Shown here: in pieces, positions 1-4,878 of the stretch
Position numbering within the stretch: the stretch's first letter is position 1
Layout of the letters: each line of letters starts with the position of its first letter
IMG/VR virus record: IMGVR_UViG_2558860274_000011
Location: 1-4,878 of that record
Origin: a virus
Taxonomy: Duplodnaviria > Heunggongvirae > Uroviricota > Caudoviricetes
Direction: 5' to 3' (one strand)
DNA: 4,878 bases
Made by a program: the position numbers and the translations under genes
Notes under the pieces: generated by a model
Database searches by the model: none
Seen by the model: only the letters and a program-made list of their open reading frames with translations
What the model was told of the DNA's origin: nothing

Positions 1-914
1 GCTGCGTGAGCAGTACGGGGTCGGACCGCTATGCAGCGAACTGCATATTGCCCCGTCAACGTATTACCACTGTCAGCAACAGCGACATCATCCGGATAAA
101 CGCAGTGCCCGTGCGCAGCGCGATGACTGGCTGAAGAAAGAGATACTGCGCGTATACGATGGGAATCATCAGGTATACGGTGTGCGTAAAGTCTGGCGTC
201 AGTTGTTACGGGAAGGAATCAGGGTAGCCAGATGTACAGTGGCGCGCCTCATGGCGGTTATGGGACTTGCCGGTGTTCTCCGGGGTAAAAAGGTCCGTAC
301 GACCATCAGCCGGAAAACCGTTGCCGCAGGCGACCGCGTAAACCGTCAGTTCGTGGCAGAACGACCTGACCAGCTGTGGGTGGCTGATTTTACTTACGTC
401 AGCACATGGCAGGGCTTCGTCTATGTGGCGTTCATCATTGATGTGTTTGCCGGATACATTGTGGGGTGGCGGGTCTCATCGTCCACGGAGACGACATTCG
501 TGCTGGATGCACTGGAGCAGGCGTTATGGGCCCGTCGACCGTCCGGCACGGTCCATCACAGTGATAAAGGTTCTCAGTATGTATCGCTGGCCTACACACA
601 GCGGCTTAAGGAAGCCGGATTACTGGCATCAACAGGAAGTACAGGCGACTCGTATGACAACGCGATGGCGGAGAGCATCAATGGTCTTTACAAAGCGGAG
701 GTAATACACCGTAAGAGCTGGAAAAACCGTGCAGAAGTGGAACTGGCCACACTCACGTGGGTGGACTGGTATAACAATCGACGATTGCTGGAAAGGCTGG
801 GCCATACTCCTCCGGCAGAAGCAGAAAAAGCTTATTATGCTTCCATCGGAAACGATGATCTGGCAGCCTGAGTTCACAGATAAAACACTCTCCAGGAAAC
901 CCGGGGCGGTTCAT
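1..914 (+). mobile_element. 3' portion of an IS3-family insertion sequence (IS629/IS1203/IS3411-like by recollection), truncated by the window start
   Basis: The transposase OrfB frame is open from the window edge to 871. It is followed by about 40 bp ending ...CCCGGGGCGGTTCA at 914, consistent with an IS3-family terminal inverted repeat (5'-TG...CA-3' ends). Sequence character changes immediately after 914. The exact end and subgroup are from memory and not verified; the left end is outside the window. Confidence 0.8.
2..871 (+). CDS. IS3-family transposase OrfB (DDE integrase-type catalytic subunit), 5'-partial at window edge
   Basis: The frame is continuous from position 2 (LREQYGVGPLCSELHIAPSTYYHC...) into the listed ORF 182..871. 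Translation contains the DDE/RNase-H-fold signatures typical of IS3 OrfB: WVADFTYV (first D), HSDKGSQY (second D) and DSYDNAMAESINGLYK (E). Stop codon at 869-871. OrfA and the frameshift site would lie upstream of the window. Confidence 0.95.
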   Translation: MREQYGVGPLCSELHIAPSTYYHCQQQRHHPDKRSARAQRDDWLKKEILRVYDGNHQVYGVRKVWRQLLREGIRVARCTVARLMAVMGLAGVLRGKKVRTTISRKTVAAGDRVNRQFVAERPDQLWVADFTYVSTWQGFVYVAFIIDVFAGYIVGWRVSSSTETTFVLDALEQALWARRPSGTVHHSDKGSQYVSLAYTQRLKEAGLLASTGSTGDSYDNAMAESINGLYKAEVIHRKSWKNRAEVELATLTWVDWYNNRRLLERLGHTPPAEAEKAYYASIGNDDLAA

Positions 915-1151
915 TGAATCTTATCCAGGCAATTGTGCGTGTCCGTATAATCATGCAAGGAATGGTAGTAGATGTGGTGGACGCAGTGCATATAGCCGTA
1001 CTGGAGGGTATGACGTGGTATGTTATGAAAGTGATGTTACCGATGAAATGATCCGGCAATGGAAGCAGGAGAATGCTGAGTAATCTCTTTTAACTGATTT
1101 GTTGTGCGAGCATTATGTGCAGTTAACGCCTCACTAGCTAGTGAGAGTTCC

Positions 1152-1186
1152 AAAAAGAAACCCCGCAGTTTTTACGCTGCGGGGTT
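1152..1186 (-). terminator. Rho-independent terminator, probably for the hok transcript; usable in both directions
   Basis: Perfect 8-bp GC-rich stem CCCCGCAG (1161-1168) / CTGCGGGG (1177-1184), extendable to 10 bp with flanking A-T pairs. On the minus strand the hairpin is followed by UUUCUUUUU (complement of 1152-1160). On the plus strand it is followed by TTGTTATT, a weaker U-tract. It lies about 90 nt downstream of the hok stop codon. Confidence 0.6.
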
Positions 1187-1272
1187 GTTATTCATGCCTA
1201 TGAGATAGGGTGCCTTATCGGCCTTACCCTAGCAACCGATTGACGGGGAGTTGCCTCCCCGTCGCGGTTTCC

Positions 1273-1413
1273 TTACTGCTTACACTGTAAGAACGCCGCA
1301 AACTCCGCTCCCCAGAAGCTCATCCGTATTTCACACAGCGAACCGTGCAGCATCCAGATGATGAGGATTACCGTCACGCAGAACGTGATGGCCGTAAGCG
1401 ATTTTTGCGACAT
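1273..1413 (-). CDS. hok: Hok/Gef-family type I toxin (small membrane-depolarising peptide), 46 aa
   Basis: Hand translation of the minus strand from ATG (complement of 1411-1413) to TAA (complement of 1273-1275) gives MSQKSLTAITFCVTVILIIWMLHGSLCEIRMSFWGAEFAAFLQCKQ. It has an N-terminal hydrophobic helix followed by the SLCEI motif and a C-terminal AAFLxCK, closely resembling Hok-family peptides as I recall them (HokA-like ...WMIRDSLCEL...ELAAFLACK). A GGAG Shine-Dalgarno lies 8 nt upstream of the ATG. Not in the ORF track because it is under the length cutoff. Confidence 0.8.
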   Translation of the reverse strand: MSQKSLTAITFCVTVILIIWMLHGSLCEIRMSFWGAEFAAFLQCKQ

Positions 1414-1543
1414 AGCGCTTGCTCCTTTGTTGGAGAGGCGCTAACCTATCACTTGCTAAGGTTAGACGGTTAGGGCCTCGGTTAAACAGAAATGTTTTCC
1501 GGGGCCTTTCCACATCTGGCCTTCGGGTATTCCCTCCGACCAT
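1331..1543 (-). CDS. Possible mok-like overlapping reading frame (modulator of killing) covering the hok start
   Basis: A 70-codon frame starting at ATG (complement of 1541-1543) overlaps the first 83 nt of hok in a different frame and stops inside hok. This is the layout expected for mok in hok/sok-type loci, where hok translation is coupled to mok. There is no convincing Shine-Dalgarno at this ATG, and the true start could be an internal GTG. The protein sequence itself is uninformative. Confidence 0.3.
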   Translation of the reverse strand: MVGGNTRRPDVERPRKTFLFNRGPNRLTLASDRLAPLQQRSKRYVAKIAYGHHVLRDGNPHHLDAARFAV

Positions 1544-1603
1544 CAGCCGAAAGGCACCCGCGCGTAATCTATCGCTTTTTTGTTACTCCGGCAATTCTGC
1601 TTG

Positions 1604-1864
1604 TTAATTCTGAGATAAAGGCAAACTCATCTGATTGTTTCCCCTGTGTGAAGCTGGCAGCTCATGCCACGGGATACCTTCTGAAGAGTGAACGCCGGAG
1701 GCGTGTTTTGATGTGAATTTATGGAAAGCTTCCAGTGTTGAGAAGCATACGCCGCATTCCAGATTGTTACACTGGTAATACTTTTGCCGCACGGTGTTTG
1801 AATCATTTTCCGGACGACTGGTGCGGATACGGGCAGATGCGCCACAAAGCGGACAACGGAACAT
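1604..1864 (-). CDS. ogr: Ogr/Delta-family zinc-finger late-gene transcriptional activator (P2 Ogr-like), 86 aa
   Basis: Translation MFRCPLCGASARIRTSRPENDSNTVRQKYYQCNNLECGVCF... shows the Ogr-family CxxC-N24-CxxxxC zinc-binding pattern and the ARxRTSR motif. It aligns by eye with P2 Ogr as I recall it (MFHCPLCQHAAHARTSRYITDTTKERYHQCQNVNC...). A strong GGGAGGT Shine-Dalgarno lies 5 nt upstream of the ATG. The protein is about 14 aa longer at the C-terminus than the ~72-aa family norm. Confidence 0.85.
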   Translation of the reverse strand: MFRCPLCGASARIRTSRPENDSNTVRQKYYQCNNLECGVCFSTLEAFHKFTSKHASGVHSSEGIPWHELPASHRGNNQMSLPLSQN

Positions 1865-1906
1865 AGCGACCTCCCTTAACGTGGTGCTGTCGCTATTCTA
1901 AGTTCC

Positions 1907-2344
1907 TCACTCTGTTTCCGCTATCCATTCCGGGATTTTTGCCTCAAGCTCAATCTGTGTGGTAAAGCCACTGTTATCAATGGTGTGCTCGGCTTTTGCA
2001 ATAATCCAGTCCTGATTATCAATCTCGCTTTTAAATCCTGTTACCGTGCCATGCATTTCGGGGTAGAGTTCTGCGCGTCCACGTGCCAGTGTGATGGAGA
2101 ATGATGCGGCTCCGCGTTGTAGCTGCTGCCACTTTGCCGCCGCTGCGCGTCTTGCTGCCTGCTCGTTCTGATAAGTCTTGCGTAACACAAACACATTGCC
2201 TTCCGCACCTTCCATATAATCACCTTCACGGCTGCTGCTTTTCTCCTTTTTGGGTTTTGGTGGTTTGCGGCGTTTCACGCTGACTTTTTTCTTTTTCCCG
2301 TAATTAAGATCAAGCCAGTAAGCGCGTATCGTGAAGAACTTGTT
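1907..2344 (-). pseudogene. Probable C-terminal fragment of a P2 gpD-like tail protein (prophage remnant); the N-terminal two thirds are absent
   Basis: A minus-strand open frame runs stop-to-stop from 2344 down to 1907 (about 145 codons). The track calls a GTG start at 2278. It ends 42 nt upstream of ogr, which is the conserved P2 gene order D-ogr. A full gpD is roughly 390 aa, so this is at most the C-terminal third. The assignment rests mainly on synteny, since I cannot recall the gpD sequence reliably. Confidence 0.5.
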
Positions 2345-2390
2345 TCATAGTGGTATATTGTGATCATCTAATAGCTCGTGAAATCATTTT

Positions 2391-2408
2391 GGTATCAAAA
2401 AAGATACC
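2391..2408. promoter_or_regulatory. Perfect inverted repeat GGTATC-N6-GATACC, candidate operator just upstream of the XRE regulator gene
   Basis: GGTATCaaaaaaGATACC lies 16 bp upstream of the 2424 start codon, in the divergent intergenic region between the gpD fragment and the regulator. A further TGGTAT copy sits at 2351-2356, next to a TGATCA palindrome. This is a typical arrangement for an autoregulated HTH repressor operator, but it is inferred from symmetry only. Confidence 0.3.
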
Positions 2409-2423
2409 TGTCAAGGTTTTTGT

Positions 2424-2828
2424 ATGAAAAATGATATTGGTCAGCGGTTGCGTGAGGAAAGGGAAAGATTGGGACTTAGTCAAGTTGCCATGAGCGACAT
2501 TGGTGGAGTCAAAAAGCTAACTCAGCTTAGATATGAGAAAGGAGATAGCTTTCCTGATGCTGCGTATTTGGCAGCGCTGTCTCGTTTTGGCCTTGATGTT
2601 CAGTATGTTGTGTTGGGAATTCACTCACCTGAAACTTATAACGATGATGAGCAGGAGTTGATTACTCGCTTTCGAGCAGCTTCGTTAGATGTGAAAAACG
2701 CGGTGATTGGGGCTTTAAAAGGTGCGATCAGTGAAAAGGAAACTCAGCCATCAGGACGTGAGTTAAATATTTCTGGTGGTAATAACCGTATCGCTGGTCG
2801 TGACTATAACGAAACTAAGGGTAGGTGA
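2424..2828 (+). CDS. XRE-family (Cro/CI-type) helix-turn-helix transcriptional regulator, 134 aa; candidate immunity repressor of the element
   Basis: The N-terminal ~65 aa (IGQRLREERERLGLSQVAMSDIGGVKKLTQLRYEKGDSFPDAAYLAALSRFGLDV) matches the XRE HTH consensus architecture. AAGG lies 8 nt upstream of the ATG. It is the first gene of a same-strand operon ending in the integrase, analogous to the P2 C-int arrangement. The C-terminal tail carries the motif GGNNRIAGRDYNE. Confidence 0.85.
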   Translation: MKNDIGQRLREERERLGLSQVAMSDIGGVKKLTQLRYEKGDSFPDAAYLAALSRFGLDVQYVVLGIHSPETYNDDEQELITRFRAASLDVKNAVIGALKGAISEKETQPSGRELNISGGNNRIAGRDYNETKGR

Positions 2829-2843
2829 TAGTAGGGAGGTGAC

Positions 2844-3494
2844 ATGGCCGTCAACTCAAACGGTTCAAACAATCGCGTTGCTGGGCGTGATTTTCACGAA
2901 AAGAATATTCAGATAGAGCGATATGATGGTTCTCATACCGTCAATATCGCAATCCCTTCGAATAATGATGATGACGATCGCCCTTTGCTTAAGGCTCAGC
3001 GTAAGGAGCTAAATAGCTTGGTTGCTGCTATTGCAGAAGCTAGCAATACTGAAGCGTTTATTATTTGGCAAAAAGTACATGCGGAGATTGGTGTAGCTGG
3101 TATTGATGATATGACAGTAAATCAATATAAAACAGCGGAGAGTTTTCTGCATGCAATGCTTGAGCGATGTAAAGATCATGATGCCTGTAAGGCTCTTGTA
3201 AGTTTATTACTACGTAACAGTGAAGACTGTGGACTTCGACAAAAACTTCTGCGGTATTGCCATATCAATTTCGGTACAGGACGTTTAAACGATCTTACTC
3301 GTTCTCAGTTACAGTCTGCATTGTCGTGGTTAGAGCAACAATCGGCATCAAGCCACACAGAGAGTTCGACCTTACCAGAAGTCCGACTTCGTGCTTCAGA
3401 ATTAATCCGACTTTATCCAAAAGAAATAATATTCTTTATCTGCGTAGGGGTTTTGGTAGGCGGTGTCATTTCTAGGGCGTTTTTTAATTTGTAA
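2844..3494 (+). CDS. Hypothetical protein, 216 aa: predicted cytoplasmic domain with a single C-terminal transmembrane anchor; function unknown
   Basis: Strong Shine-Dalgarno GGGAGGT 5 nt upstream of the ATG. The C-terminal segment IIFFICVGVLVGGVISRAFF is a plausible tail-anchor transmembrane helix. An acidic DDDD patch lies near the N-terminus, which also carries the motif SNNRVAGRDFHE shared with the upstream regulator. The gene is AT-rich compared with the IS and hok regions. I recognise no family. Confidence 0.7.
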   Translation: MAVNSNGSNNRVAGRDFHEKNIQIERYDGSHTVNIAIPSNNDDDDRPLLKAQRKELNSLVAAIAEASNTEAFIIWQKVHAEIGVAGIDDMTVNQYKTAESFLHAMLERCKDHDACKALVSLLLRNSEDCGLRQKLLRYCHINFGTGRLNDLTRSQLQSALSWLEQQSASSHTESSTLPEVRLRASELIRLYPKEIIFFICVGVLVGGVISRAFFNL

Positions 3495-3523
3495 TCTTAC
3501 TTGAGCTAAATTGAGGTAATGAT

Positions 3524-3871
3524 ATGAAAGTAAAAAATGTTCAACTATTAGTTACTTTTTTATCTATGTTTTCTTTTTCCGCCGTCGCAATGCCTTTTAA
3601 AACTATTGAACGTGAGAGTTTTAATGGGGTATGGCCATTTAATACTGATGAGGTTCAATTACAGTGTCTTGATGGTAATCCTTATGTGATGAATTTTGAC
3701 GATAATAAGTTATATGCACTTACAGGTTTGGCTCGAATAAAAGGTAAAACATTTGGTGCGTTACCGTTAGATAACAATAATCCATTTTGGCTAGATAATG
3801 ATGCCGCCCCAGGGTTAAAAAAGAGTCTGGGGGATGTCACTAAGGCTGCATTTGATTTATGTGATAAGTAA
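3524..3871 (+). CDS. Hypothetical secreted or periplasmic protein, 115 aa, with an N-terminal Sec signal peptide; function unknown
   Basis: Shine-Dalgarno GAGGT 6 nt upstream of the ATG. The N-terminus MKVKNVQLLVTFLSMFSFSAVA has a basic n-region, a hydrophobic core and an AVA cleavage motif. The mature part has two Cys (possible disulfide) and is rich in N, D and P. The gene is markedly AT-rich. No family recognised. Confidence 0.75.
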   Translation: MKVKNVQLLVTFLSMFSFSAVAMPFKTIERESFNGVWPFNTDEVQLQCLDGNPYVMNFDDNKLYALTGLARIKGKTFGALPLDNNNPFWLDNDAAPGLKKSLGDVTKAAFDLCDK

Positions 3872-3876
3872 CTAAA

Positions 3877-4878
3877 ATGTCGGTTCGTAAGATTCCATCA
3901 GGTAAATGGCTTTGCGAATGTTATCCCTACGGGGCATCGGGAAAACGCATTCGTAAACAGTTTGCGACAAAAAGTGAGGCGCTCTCTTATGAGCGCCGTT
4001 TAATGAATAGTAGAGTTGGAGACGAGTTTCAAGATGGTTCTGGTCCTCGTCTTTCTGAGTTGATTGCTCGTTGGTTTGAGATGTACGGTAAAACCTTGTC
4101 CTCTGGTGCAGAGCGCAAAGTCAAACTTGAGGCGATTTGTTCCAGGCTGGGAGATCCATTTGCTTCTCAGTTTGACAAAAATATGTTTGCTACTTATCGG
4201 GAAAGAAGGCTATCAGGAGAATGGAATCCCAAGGGGAAGAAAAAACTTAGTGAAGCAACCGTTAATCGCGAGCAGTCATATCTACATGCTGTTTTTGCCG
4301 AACTGAAGCGCCTTGGGGAGTGGTCTGGTGAAAACCCCCTGACTGGTATTCGCAAGTTTCGTGAGGAAGAAAAGGAACTGGCGTTTCTGTATGTAGATGA
4401 GATTGAACGCCTTCTGATTGCGTGTGATGAGTCACGGAATAAAGATTTGGGGGTTGTTGTCCGTATTGGGCTTGCGACGGGTGCTCGGTGGAGTGAAGCA
4501 GAAGGATTAAAGCAATCTCAAGTACTGCCCGGTCGAATCACATTTGTTAAAACTAAAGGAAAGAAGAACCGCACTGTACCGATTTCACCTCAATTGCAGG
4601 CTATGCTTCCTAAAAAACGAGGAGCGCTATTTTCACCATGTTATGAGGCTTTTGACGCTGCAATTAAGAGAGCGAAGATCGAGCTTCCTGATGGGCAATT
4701 AACTCATGTGCTACGTCACACGTTTGCCAGTCATTTTATGATGCGGGGCGGAAATATTCTTGTGTTGCAAAAAATACTGGGGCATAGCGATATAAAAATG
4801 ACTATGCGTTATGCGCATTTTGCTCCAGGTCATTTAGAGGCTGCTGTTGAATTGAACCCTTTTGACAATAGAGGGTAA
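3877..4878 (+). CDS. int: Tyrosine site-specific recombinase / phage integrase, P2-Int-like, 333 aa, complete (stop at window end)
   Basis: Translation shows the catalytic signature of tyrosine recombinases: LATGARWSEA (Arg), HVLRHTFASHF (HxxR) and MTMRYAHFAP (Tyr nucleophile). It also has blocks I recall from P2 Int (GKRIRKQF..SEA, RITFVKTKGKKNRTVPIS, GGNILVLQKILGH). The ATG is 5 nt after the upstream stop, suggesting translational coupling. TAA at 4876-4878. Confidence 0.95.
   Translation: MSVRKIPSGKWLCECYPYGASGKRIRKQFATKSEALSYERRLMNSRVGDEFQDGSGPRLSELIARWFEMYGKTLSSGAERKVKLEAICSRLGDPFASQFDKNMFATYRERRLSGEWNPKGKKKLSEATVNREQSYLHAVFAELKRLGEWSGENPLTGIRKFREEEKELAFLYVDEIERLLIACDESRNKDLGVVVRIGLATGARWSEAEGLKQSQVLPGRITFVKTKGKKNRTVPISPQLQAMLPKKRGALFSPCYEAFDAAIKRAKIELPDGQLTHVLRHTFASHFMMRGGNILVLQKILGHSDIKMTMRYAHFAPGHLEAAVELNPFDNRG

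Follow-up and report, generated by a model that had tools for sequence, protein, structure and literature searches.

The window, by which we mean the whole 4,878-nt stretch of DNA analyzed, encodes on its minus strand a 46-residue peptide of the Hok/Gef toxin family; the gene and the elements that surround it are listed in Table 1. Family membership, which had been proposed in an earlier sequence-only reading of the window, was confirmed with the Pfam profile HOK_GEF (PF01848), against which the peptide scored 30.1 bits (curated cut-off, 22; E 3.7e-7), with residues 7-44 aligned to profile positions 5-42 of 42. Both motifs which that reading had listed as hallmarks, SLCEI and a C-terminal AAFLxCK, can be read in the peptide, the latter as AAFLQCK, and the gene has the GGAG ribosome-binding site of its own that had been described. 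An N-terminal transmembrane helix was recognized on visual inspection of the sequence. Residues C27 and C44, 17 positions apart, are invariant across the aligned 46-residue relatives; the same spacing separates Cys29 and Cys46 of HokB, and the disulfide between these two is reported to be essential for toxicity in a recent preprint (Escalera-Maurer et al., bioRxiv 10.1101/2025.08.07.668861).

A protein search returned 68 homologues, with E values down to 1e-22, and outlined a compact clade of 46-residue peptides from E. coli, Shigella, Salmonella, and Klebsiella. Within the alignment of this clade, M1, Q3, K4, G24, C27, E28, and the segment AExAAxLQCK do not vary. The best-scoring NCBIfam model, the HokA equivalog NF007290, gave 35.8 bits against a cut-off of 89, and the Hok subfamily model NF007279 gave 23.6 bits against a cut-off of 73; as both scores lie far under their cut-offs, the peptide belongs to a separate clade and is not a HokA orthologue. 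Differences among the hok relatives numbered 105, 46, and 185 at codon positions 1, 2, and 3, respectively, and 116 codon differences were synonymous versus 128 non-synonymous, a pattern that fits a Hok peptide under moderate purifying selection.

Table 1. Elements of the hok locus, with positions numbered along the window
Feature	Position	Strand	Description and basis
Putative hok promoter, -35 TTGCCG	1594-1589	-	17 nt ahead of the -10 element
Putative hok promoter, -10 TAGATT	1571-1566	-	6 nt before the +1
Full-length hok mRNA, 408 nt	1559-1152	-	+1 inferred at G1559; 3' end taken as terminator T-tract
tac (GGGUGCCUUUCGGCU)	1559-1545	-	pairs with fbi, alternatively with ucb; MFE fold and covariation
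70-codon overlapping ORF ("mok-like")	1543-1331	-	ORF list; judged fortuitous
ucb (GAAAGGCCCC)	1510-1501	-	pairs with GAGG region (full-length fold) or with tac (truncated fold)
Invariant GAGG, at R1 mok Shine-Dalgarno position	1479-1476	-	alignment of 54 sequences
GAGG/dcb hairpin, GAGGC-C-CUAACC ... GGUUAG-C-GCCUC	1479-1435	-	predicted Sok target in processed mRNA
hok Shine-Dalgarno, GGAG	1425-1422	-	8 nt upstream of ATG; sequence reading and fold
hok CDS	1413-1273	-	46 codons plus stop; product MSQKSLTAITFCVTVILIIWMLHGSLCEIRMSFWGAEFAAFLQCKQ; peptide of catalogue entry 1628
3' stem-loop, GACGGGGAG-GCAA-CUCCCCGUC, 9 bp	1263-1242	-	scan and covariation
3'-UTR segment (CGGUUGCUAGGGU)	1238-1226 (mRNA 322-334)	-	pairs with variable Sok-target segment, mRNA 98-111
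fbi (GGCCGAUAAGGCACCC)	1223-1208	-	3' partner of tac; MFE fold and pair counts
Intrinsic terminator of hok mRNA	1186-1152	-	stem 1186-1159, T-tract to 1152; terminator scan
Predicted Sok-like promoter	1419-1447	+	-35 TTGCTC 1419-1424, 17-nt spacer, -10 TAACCT 1442-1447
Predicted Sok-like RNA, ~59 nt, ends approximate	1454-1512	+	variable 5' tail, hairpin, short U run

Genomic setting and earlier knowledge of the locus

A stretch of 551 bases spanning the locus matches DNA of many complete E. coli chromosomes at 100% identity, and RefSeq annotates this identical DNA as "Hok/Gef family protein", adjoining an ogr/Delta zinc-finger gene. Matches were found in 1,550 of the 5,426 complete E. coli genomes, and at least 80% of the 551-base query was covered in 1,205. 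The gene order in E. coli 2015C-3108 is tail genes, gpD, ogr, hok, a small hypothetical gene, tRNA-Leu/Cys/Gly, and pgsA; this region forms the right-hand end of a P2-like prophage. P88-like (Peduoviridae) prophages have hok downstream of ogr, the same cassette is found at 95-97% identity in phage P88 and in further genomes of Xuanwuvirus (Peduoviridae), and many Stx2a phages carry a version with 84% identity. Some of the P88/Xuanwuvirus phage records label the 46-residue product "MokW-like host killing", which is a misnomer. The prophage in the window has lost ~29.5 kb and carries an IS3-family insertion. Window positions 912-2328 are 99.93% identical to the intact prophage, which leaves the promoter, the two RNAs, and the terminator unaltered here. 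Survival of the locus in a prophage reduced by ~29.5 kb fits, without proving, a role in addiction or retention.

The exact peptide is already on record, as entry 1628 among the cluster-72 sequences of a 2026 preprint on Hok diversity (Escalera-Maurer et al., bioRxiv 10.1101/2025.08.07.668861). According to that source, two cluster-72 representatives, 72_1621 (of which V15A is the sole difference) and 72_1589, were cloned for the toxicity assay, and 42 of the 45 Hok homologues tested were toxic. The three sequences named there as non-toxic (19_179, 60_1482, and 69_1540) come from other clusters, and neither cluster-72 representative is among them. The preprint also describes hok as enriched in prophages, and places mok, Sok, and mRNA structure deliberately outside its analysis. 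The RefSeq annotation, the catalogue entry, and the toxicity of the cluster together mean that the toxin gene was already known: the locus is a genuine, already catalogued hok/sok-type toxin-antitoxin at the end of a decayed P2-like prophage. The gene find itself thus adds nothing, as the NCBI pipeline names the gene, and the survey lists the peptide and reports a toxic cluster; its value is that a reader of raw sequence can recover a 46-codon toxin missed by ORF tracks. Together with the Pfam result and an Rfam leader match (below), the annotation and the catalogued peptide bear out the central claim of the sequence-only reading, a Hok/Gef type I toxin locus. We put at roughly 0.88 the probability of the reading in which the locus is an intact type I toxin-antitoxin cassette of the hok/sok type that a P88-like (P2 family) prophage carries as cargo at its ogr end.

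The hok mRNA and a predicted antisense RNA

We compared 54 distinct homologous transcripts, including that of the window. A profile scan of genome contigs, built from the peptide alignment, contributed seven loci, and a scan of viral sequences yielded mainly near-identical ones; the diversity in the set came from searches with Salmonella and Klebsiella variants. Some of the contig loci carry odd labels (a Planococcaceae MAG, Vagococcus, and Xanthomonas pisi), and probably reflect contamination with Enterobacteriaceae DNA.

The Rfam model RF01794 aligns end to end (model positions 1-157) with window positions 1559-1403 on the minus strand (E 3.3e-8), at a score of 45.9 bits that is under the gathering score of 59. 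Although named "sok", this family describes the leader of the hok mRNA, which runs from +1 to the hok AUG. We set the +1 at G1559 because position 1 of the model aligns there and CGGGUGCC is conserved. The -35 and -10 elements of the putative hok promoter match 8 of 12 consensus positions, and GCGATAGATTACGCGCGGGTGCC, at the putative -10, is kept in most E. coli relatives. A sigma-70 scan with a threshold of 9 of 12 flagged no promoter on either strand, so that both this promoter and the antisense promoter described below are assigned by positional homology and conservation. Downstream of the gene, the strong intrinsic terminator that had been noted earlier was recovered as a stem followed by a T-tract, one of three terminator-like sites found by the scan versus 0.7 expected. 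The stem of this terminator scores on the plus strand as well.

The predicted fold of the transcript contains the elements known from hok of plasmid R1, and tac, ucb, and fbi, the placing of which had been proposed as a check, could all be located (Table 1). In the minimum free energy (MFE) fold, tac and fbi form a 15-bp helix in which 4 of the 15 pairs show compensatory changes and 96.5% of the cells in the 54-sequence alignment are paired; this percentage, like those given below, is inflated by the fact that the structures derive from the window's own MFE fold, whereas the compensatory changes are not. For example, CGGC/GCCG in E. coli is replaced by CGAC/GUCG in Salmonella. Across the 54 sequences, tac columns 33 and 34 covary both with fbi (columns 388 and 387) and with ucb (columns 76 and 75), a pattern that is the "coupled covariation" signature of the R1 hok folding pathway. 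The 9-bp stem-loop with a GCAA loop after the stop codon, also described previously, was confirmed: 5 of its 9 pairs are compensatory and 99.6% of cells are paired across the same sequences. By analogy with R1, this stem-loop is probably the protective end of a processed mRNA. Between it and fbi, a 3'-UTR segment pairs in the full-length fold with the variable part of the predicted Sok target, forming a helix with compensatory changes in 8 of 14 pairs (84.6% of cells paired; 54 sequences).

Two local hairpins lie in the leader. The GAGG/dcb hairpin, present both in the leader fold and in the fold of mRNA 1-322, has 14 pairs, is 93% paired among the 54 sequences, and is mostly invariant. It includes the CTAACC...GGTTAG complementarity previously reported around 1441-1466, which we also found, with CTAACC at 1465-1460, a second copy at 1473-1468, and GGTTAG at 1446-1441, all on the minus strand. 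In the full-length MFE fold, the hok Shine-Dalgarno sequence is enclosed by a hairpin, UAGCGC-C-UCUCC...GGAG-CA-AGCGCUA, that reaches the AUG and has 11 pairs (96% paired; 54 sequences). For the structure as a whole, the observed covariation was reached in none of 500 shuffles, and sliding the 3' partners lowered pairing from 94.7% to ~40%. The earlier suggestion of a structured hok mRNA is, in this way, backed by compensatory changes over the 54 sequences.

The sequence-only reading had looked for an antisense Sok promoter or terminator on the plus strand around 1480-1600 and had located none that was convincing. That interval lies too far upstream, and a candidate can be placed instead at ~1419-1512 of the same strand, on the basis of its homology in position to R1, where dcb, forming the 3' half of the GAGG/dcb stem, contains the Sok promoter and is the site of an R1 Sok promoter mutation. 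On the antisense strand, the R1 promoter reads TTGCGC-17 nt-TATCCT and that of the window TTGCTC-17 nt-TAACCT, which agrees with the consensus at 6 of 12 positions and went unflagged in the scan. Of the 54 relatives, 52 have TAACCT and 2 have TATCCT as the -10, and the -35 occurs as TTGCTC, TTTACT, or TTGCCT, at a constant spacing of 17 nt.

The RNA predicted to start from this promoter would consist of a single-stranded tail of 14-19 nt, a hairpin (GGGCCUCGG..AAACA-GAAA-UGUUU.CCGGGGCCU), and the sequence UUUCC; as a terminator, it has a 3-U tail only. Its predicted fold has a free energy of -24.1 kcal/mol (z -3.56), and none of 200 shuffles was equally stable. In each of the 33 variants compared, folding was more stable for the antisense strand (-18.7 to -28.3 kcal/mol) than for the sense strand (-8.0 to -18.3 kcal/mol); where the antisense stem has a U-G pair, a C-A mismatch stands in the sense stem. 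This consistent difference points to selection on the antisense RNA. No part of the locus varies more than the 5' tail of the predicted Sok, the target of which covaries with the 3'-UTR clamp.

Conservation of this kind weighs against regarding the cassette as an intact but silent relic that, like the chromosomal hok genes of K-12, is expressed in this host at too low a level to matter, and that persists only by hitch-hiking on a prophage remnant. E. coli, Salmonella, Klebsiella, and Citrobacter all retain the antisense promoter motif and hairpin, at least four helices are preserved by compensatory changes, and third codon positions vary most (46 second- versus 185 third-position differences). 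A silent relic would agree with the poor consensus match of both promoters (8 and 6 of 12 positions), with the decay of the surrounding prophage through a 29.5-kb deletion and an IS insertion, and with the failure of chromosomal hokA, hokB, and hokC in tests of post-segregational killing, as cited in the preprint (bioRxiv 10.1101/2025.08.07.668861). However, cluster-72 peptides are toxic in published work, and a single chromosomal copy of R1 hok is lethal without Sok. We consider the silent relic unlikely.

The leader reading frame

A 70-codon frame overlapping the start of hok does exist, as had been reported, but its proposed equivalence to mok did not hold, because the frame is not conserved. 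Its ATG lies at mRNA +17, inside tac, with no Shine-Dalgarno sequence, and its product has no Pfam or NCBIfam match. Only 9 of the 54 distinct sequences, that of the window included, are open from the same ATG (at -130 relative to hok); 8 others have read-through ORFs with scattered starts, and the remaining 37 have none, most of them containing either a UAA in frame at -43 or, within the variable segment, an indel of 1 nt. Indels of 1 nt are found inside the frame even among otherwise near-identical relatives. As a positive control, the script used for this survey recovered the true R1 mok at -58 from the hok ATG.

The GAGG at the position of the R1 mok Shine-Dalgarno sequence is part of a CCGAGGC that is invariant in 54 of 54 sequences. 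Whereas R1 has GAGG-7 nt-mok ATG, the window has no ATG at that place: the conserved GAGG is followed by CCCUAACCGUC, and none of the 54 sequences offers an ATG, GTG, or TTG initiator there. Two further candidates were considered and rejected. A short frame beginning ATG(1516)-TGG-AAA could encode a leader peptide, but its ATG is missing in Salmonella and Klebsiella, and it stops (TAA) ~45 nt before the hok ATG; non-canonical mok starts (CTG, ATT, ATC, or ATA) are absent from the open stretch in most relatives. The K-12 hokA leader was also set aside as a reference, being interrupted by IS150 and too divergent.

The missing Shine-Dalgarno sequence, the poor conservation, and the lack of a family match led us to judge the 70-codon frame fortuitous, and we conclude from the aligned sequences that the clade has no conserved mok. 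A canonical hok/mok/sok system, in which this frame would be a working mok that is needed for hok translation and blocked by Sok, is accordingly very improbable: that the frame overlaps the hok start, that R1 mok likewise has 70 codons, that the GAGG is invariant, and that nine sequences share the open frame from -130 are set against a start codon inside tac with no Shine-Dalgarno sequence, a GAGG with no start codon after it, scattered starts or no read-through ORF in the other relatives, 1-nt indels between near-identical sequences, and a frame that resembles no family. That the locus is no gene at all, merely a chance small ORF with hairpins of a size (46 codons) matched by many other ORFs in the window, is already refuted by the Pfam score above the curated cut-off, the 68 homologues with E values down to 1e-22, the RefSeq annotation, and the published catalogue and experiments in which close variants of the peptide are toxic.

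Although mok-dependent coupling is treated as integral to hok/sok regulation, the comparison of 54 relatives suggests that it is not universal in the family. Our literature search, which did not extend to older Gerdes-lab papers, found no paper stating explicitly that mok is missing from some hok loci, and a prior description is possible. The residual interest of the locus lies in this apparently mok-less regulation and in the mapped candidate Sok, neither of which the recent Hok survey addresses.

Proposed regulation and comparison with known systems

We propose that the weak promoter (1594-1566, minus strand) would produce a 408-nt mRNA (1559-1152) in which tac is clamped to fbi, ucb is paired with the GAGG region, the 3'-UTR segment covers the Sok target, and the hok Shine-Dalgarno sequence and AUG are held in their local hairpin. 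With these clamps and the local hairpin in place, the full-length mRNA would be silent and unable to bind the antisense RNA. Slow 3' trimming to the GCAA hairpin (1263-1242) would then remove both fbi and the 3' clamp, after which tac could pair with ucb, and the GAGGC thus freed with dcb. Because dcb (GGUUAGCGCCUC) is predicted to overlap the 5' arm of the hairpin at the hok translation initiation region (TIR; UAGCGC...GCGCUA), with UAGCGCCUC as the shared nucleotides, formation of GAGG/dcb would open the hok start. The 46-residue membrane toxin would then be translated directly from its own GGAG, with no need for a mok leader frame. Where the antisense RNA (~1454-1512, plus strand) is present, it would pair through its 5' tail with the target hairpin and so prevent the rearrangement; bound to mRNA 48-106, Sok would let the hok-TIR hairpin re-form, and the duplex would be exposed to RNase III, as in R1.

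Folding of mRNA 1-322 agrees qualitatively with this order of events, in that GAGG/dcb replaces the hok-TIR hairpin and that the latter returns when positions 48-106 are blocked. The mean unpaired probability of the hok TIR was 0.27 in the full-length mRNA, 0.37 in the processed form, and 0.24 in the Sok-bound form, a modest change in accessibility that speaks weakly for the mok-independent relay. Hok is probably translated directly after refolding of the mRNA. The transcript ends, 3' processing, and expression of Sok, as well as the mok-independent relay and a role in prophage retention or lysis, are steps that we infer; those shared with R1 (the clamp, trimming, tac/ucb refolding, antisense binding, and RNase III) are suggested by the conserved elements together with the literature.

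A broader reading, which we offer tentatively and at slightly less than even odds, is that the cluster-72 hok genes are a natural mok-less branch of the family. Hok would be made directly from its own Shine-Dalgarno sequence, and the GAGG, ancestrally the mok Shine-Dalgarno sequence, would survive as an RNA-structure element only, in the GAGG/dcb stem and as part of the Sok hairpin. Sok would act by blocking the relay and through RNase III, not on a leader ORF; its hypervariable 5' tail covaries with both the target and the 3'-UTR clamp. If true, a mok-less branch with a hypervariable Sok tail could give each prophage copy a private antitoxin specificity.

The hok/mok/sok (parB) locus of R1 shares with that of the window (i) a Hok/Gef peptide with SLCEI and two cysteines 17 residues apart; (ii) an mRNA of ~400 nt with a tac/fbi clamp, an alternative tac/ucb stem, a GAGG/dcb hairpin, and a stable stem-loop upstream of fbi; and (iii) an antisense RNA, predicted in our case, made up of a single-stranded 5' tail and one hairpin. 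The two differ in the host element, here a P2-like prophage and in R1 a plasmid, and in the peptide, which is 39% identical over 31 residues and has 46 residues here versus 52 in R1. In R1, translation of mok up to the hok Shine-Dalgarno sequence is mandatory. As judged by sequence, the locus of the window fails this one classical defining feature of hok/sok, mok itself; without a mok, the predicted Sok cannot act by blocking a leader ORF. An arrangement without a leader ORF, in which the antitoxin RNA binds at a long distance upstream of the start codon of the toxin, is known from tisB/istR-1 and zorO/orzO, which resemble what a mok-less hok would require by analogy only, their toxins and RNAs being unrelated.

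The closest named Hok is HokA of E. coli K-12, at 43% identity, with a common MxQK N-terminus, WM, SLCE, and AAFLxCK. Both cysteines are hard-coded in HokA and in the peptide of the window, so that neither needs A-to-I editing. The leader sequences of the two differ, and K-12 hokA is interrupted by IS150. Another prophage-borne hok/sok pair, hokW-sokW of the Stx2 prophage Sp5, differs in its peptide (HokW has 51 residues), in its leader, and in its host, a lambdoid rather than a P2-like phage; it has been shown to be a working type I toxin-antitoxin that is partly RNase III- and Hfq-dependent and that aids lysis upon induction.

Prophage ends and deletion junction

Comparison with complete genomes such as that of E. 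coli strain 2015C-3108, which carries an intact P2-like prophage, placed the two prophage ends that meet in the window (table) about 29.5 kb apart, at record positions of about 1,001,806 and 1,031,305 in 2015C-3108, which makes the window a remnant of a P2-like prophage. Besides int, ogr and hok (the Hok/Gef toxin gene), the remnant retains three small genes and a 3' piece of gpD. The gpD fragment scored 28.3 bits against its profile, under the cut-off of 30.1 bits. At the integrase end, the 216-aa protein of the cargo block (2424-4878, plus strand) had no real family match in the profile search. The window's junction arrangement was found in none of the complete E. coli genomes in the collection.

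Features of the window and of two related Salmonella contigs
Feature	Position	Strand	Remarks
IS3-family insertion sequence, 3' part	1-911
ALIL frameshift pseudoknot	1-55		48.8 bits; 5' end cut off
Transposase orfB	182-871		rve domains
Ogr/Delta zinc-finger late activator, intact	1604-1864	-	52.4 bits; comes after gpD fragment
Truncated gpD/baseplate-hub gene	1907-2278	-	profile positions 218-304 of 305 only
Deletion junction	2326-2328		joins 912-2328 and 2326-4878, two ends of one P2-like prophage
Integrase-end cargo block	2424-4878	+	four proteins
HTH protein	within 2424-4878	+	134 aa
DUF2511 protein	within 2424-4878	+	115 aa
Tyrosine integrase	within 2424-4878	+	333 aa; Int_N and Phage_integrase
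Tandem hok copies, L098	701-841 and 1195-1335
Tandem hok copies, L099	701-841 and 1191-1331

Sequences flanking hok

The insertion-sequence segment shares 99.1% identity with copies from E. coli E2348/69, and approximately 4,200 of the 5,426 complete E. coli genomes contain it. Homology between the window and the intact prophage ends at 912, which shows that the small hypothetical gene normally located 3' of hok is broken by this insertion.

When window positions 1152-1207 were compared with related hok loci (L003, L012, L015, L019, L030, L075 and L085), the sequence 3' of fbi (the 3' mRNA element that partners tac) was unrelated in several relatives and took the place of the window's terminator. 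This replacement puts the cassette boundary, or a recombination or att junction, directly after fbi. The stem of the window's terminator (1159-1186) is likewise scored as a terminator when the plus strand is read.

Related loci and their annotation

Five phage records (NC_026014 (P88), NC_049391, NC_049343, NC_049344 and PP925824) carry the annotation 'MokW-like host killing' for the 46-aa Hok product. This label is a misnomer, as the product is a hok-type toxin, and neither a mok product nor HokW.

Near-identical hok loci (L005, L006 and L009) were also found on contigs labeled as a Planococcaceae MAG, Vagococcus sp. and Xanthomonas pisi; most likely, these represent Enterobacteriaceae contamination of the assemblies. 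Two Salmonella contigs, L098 and L099, encode the 46-aa hok twice in tandem, approximately 490 bp apart, and the copies differ in their Sok-tail/target sequences, i.e., the variable 5' tail of the predicted antisense RNA and its mRNA target. In L098, a YafO-family toxin gene adjoins the tandem copies.
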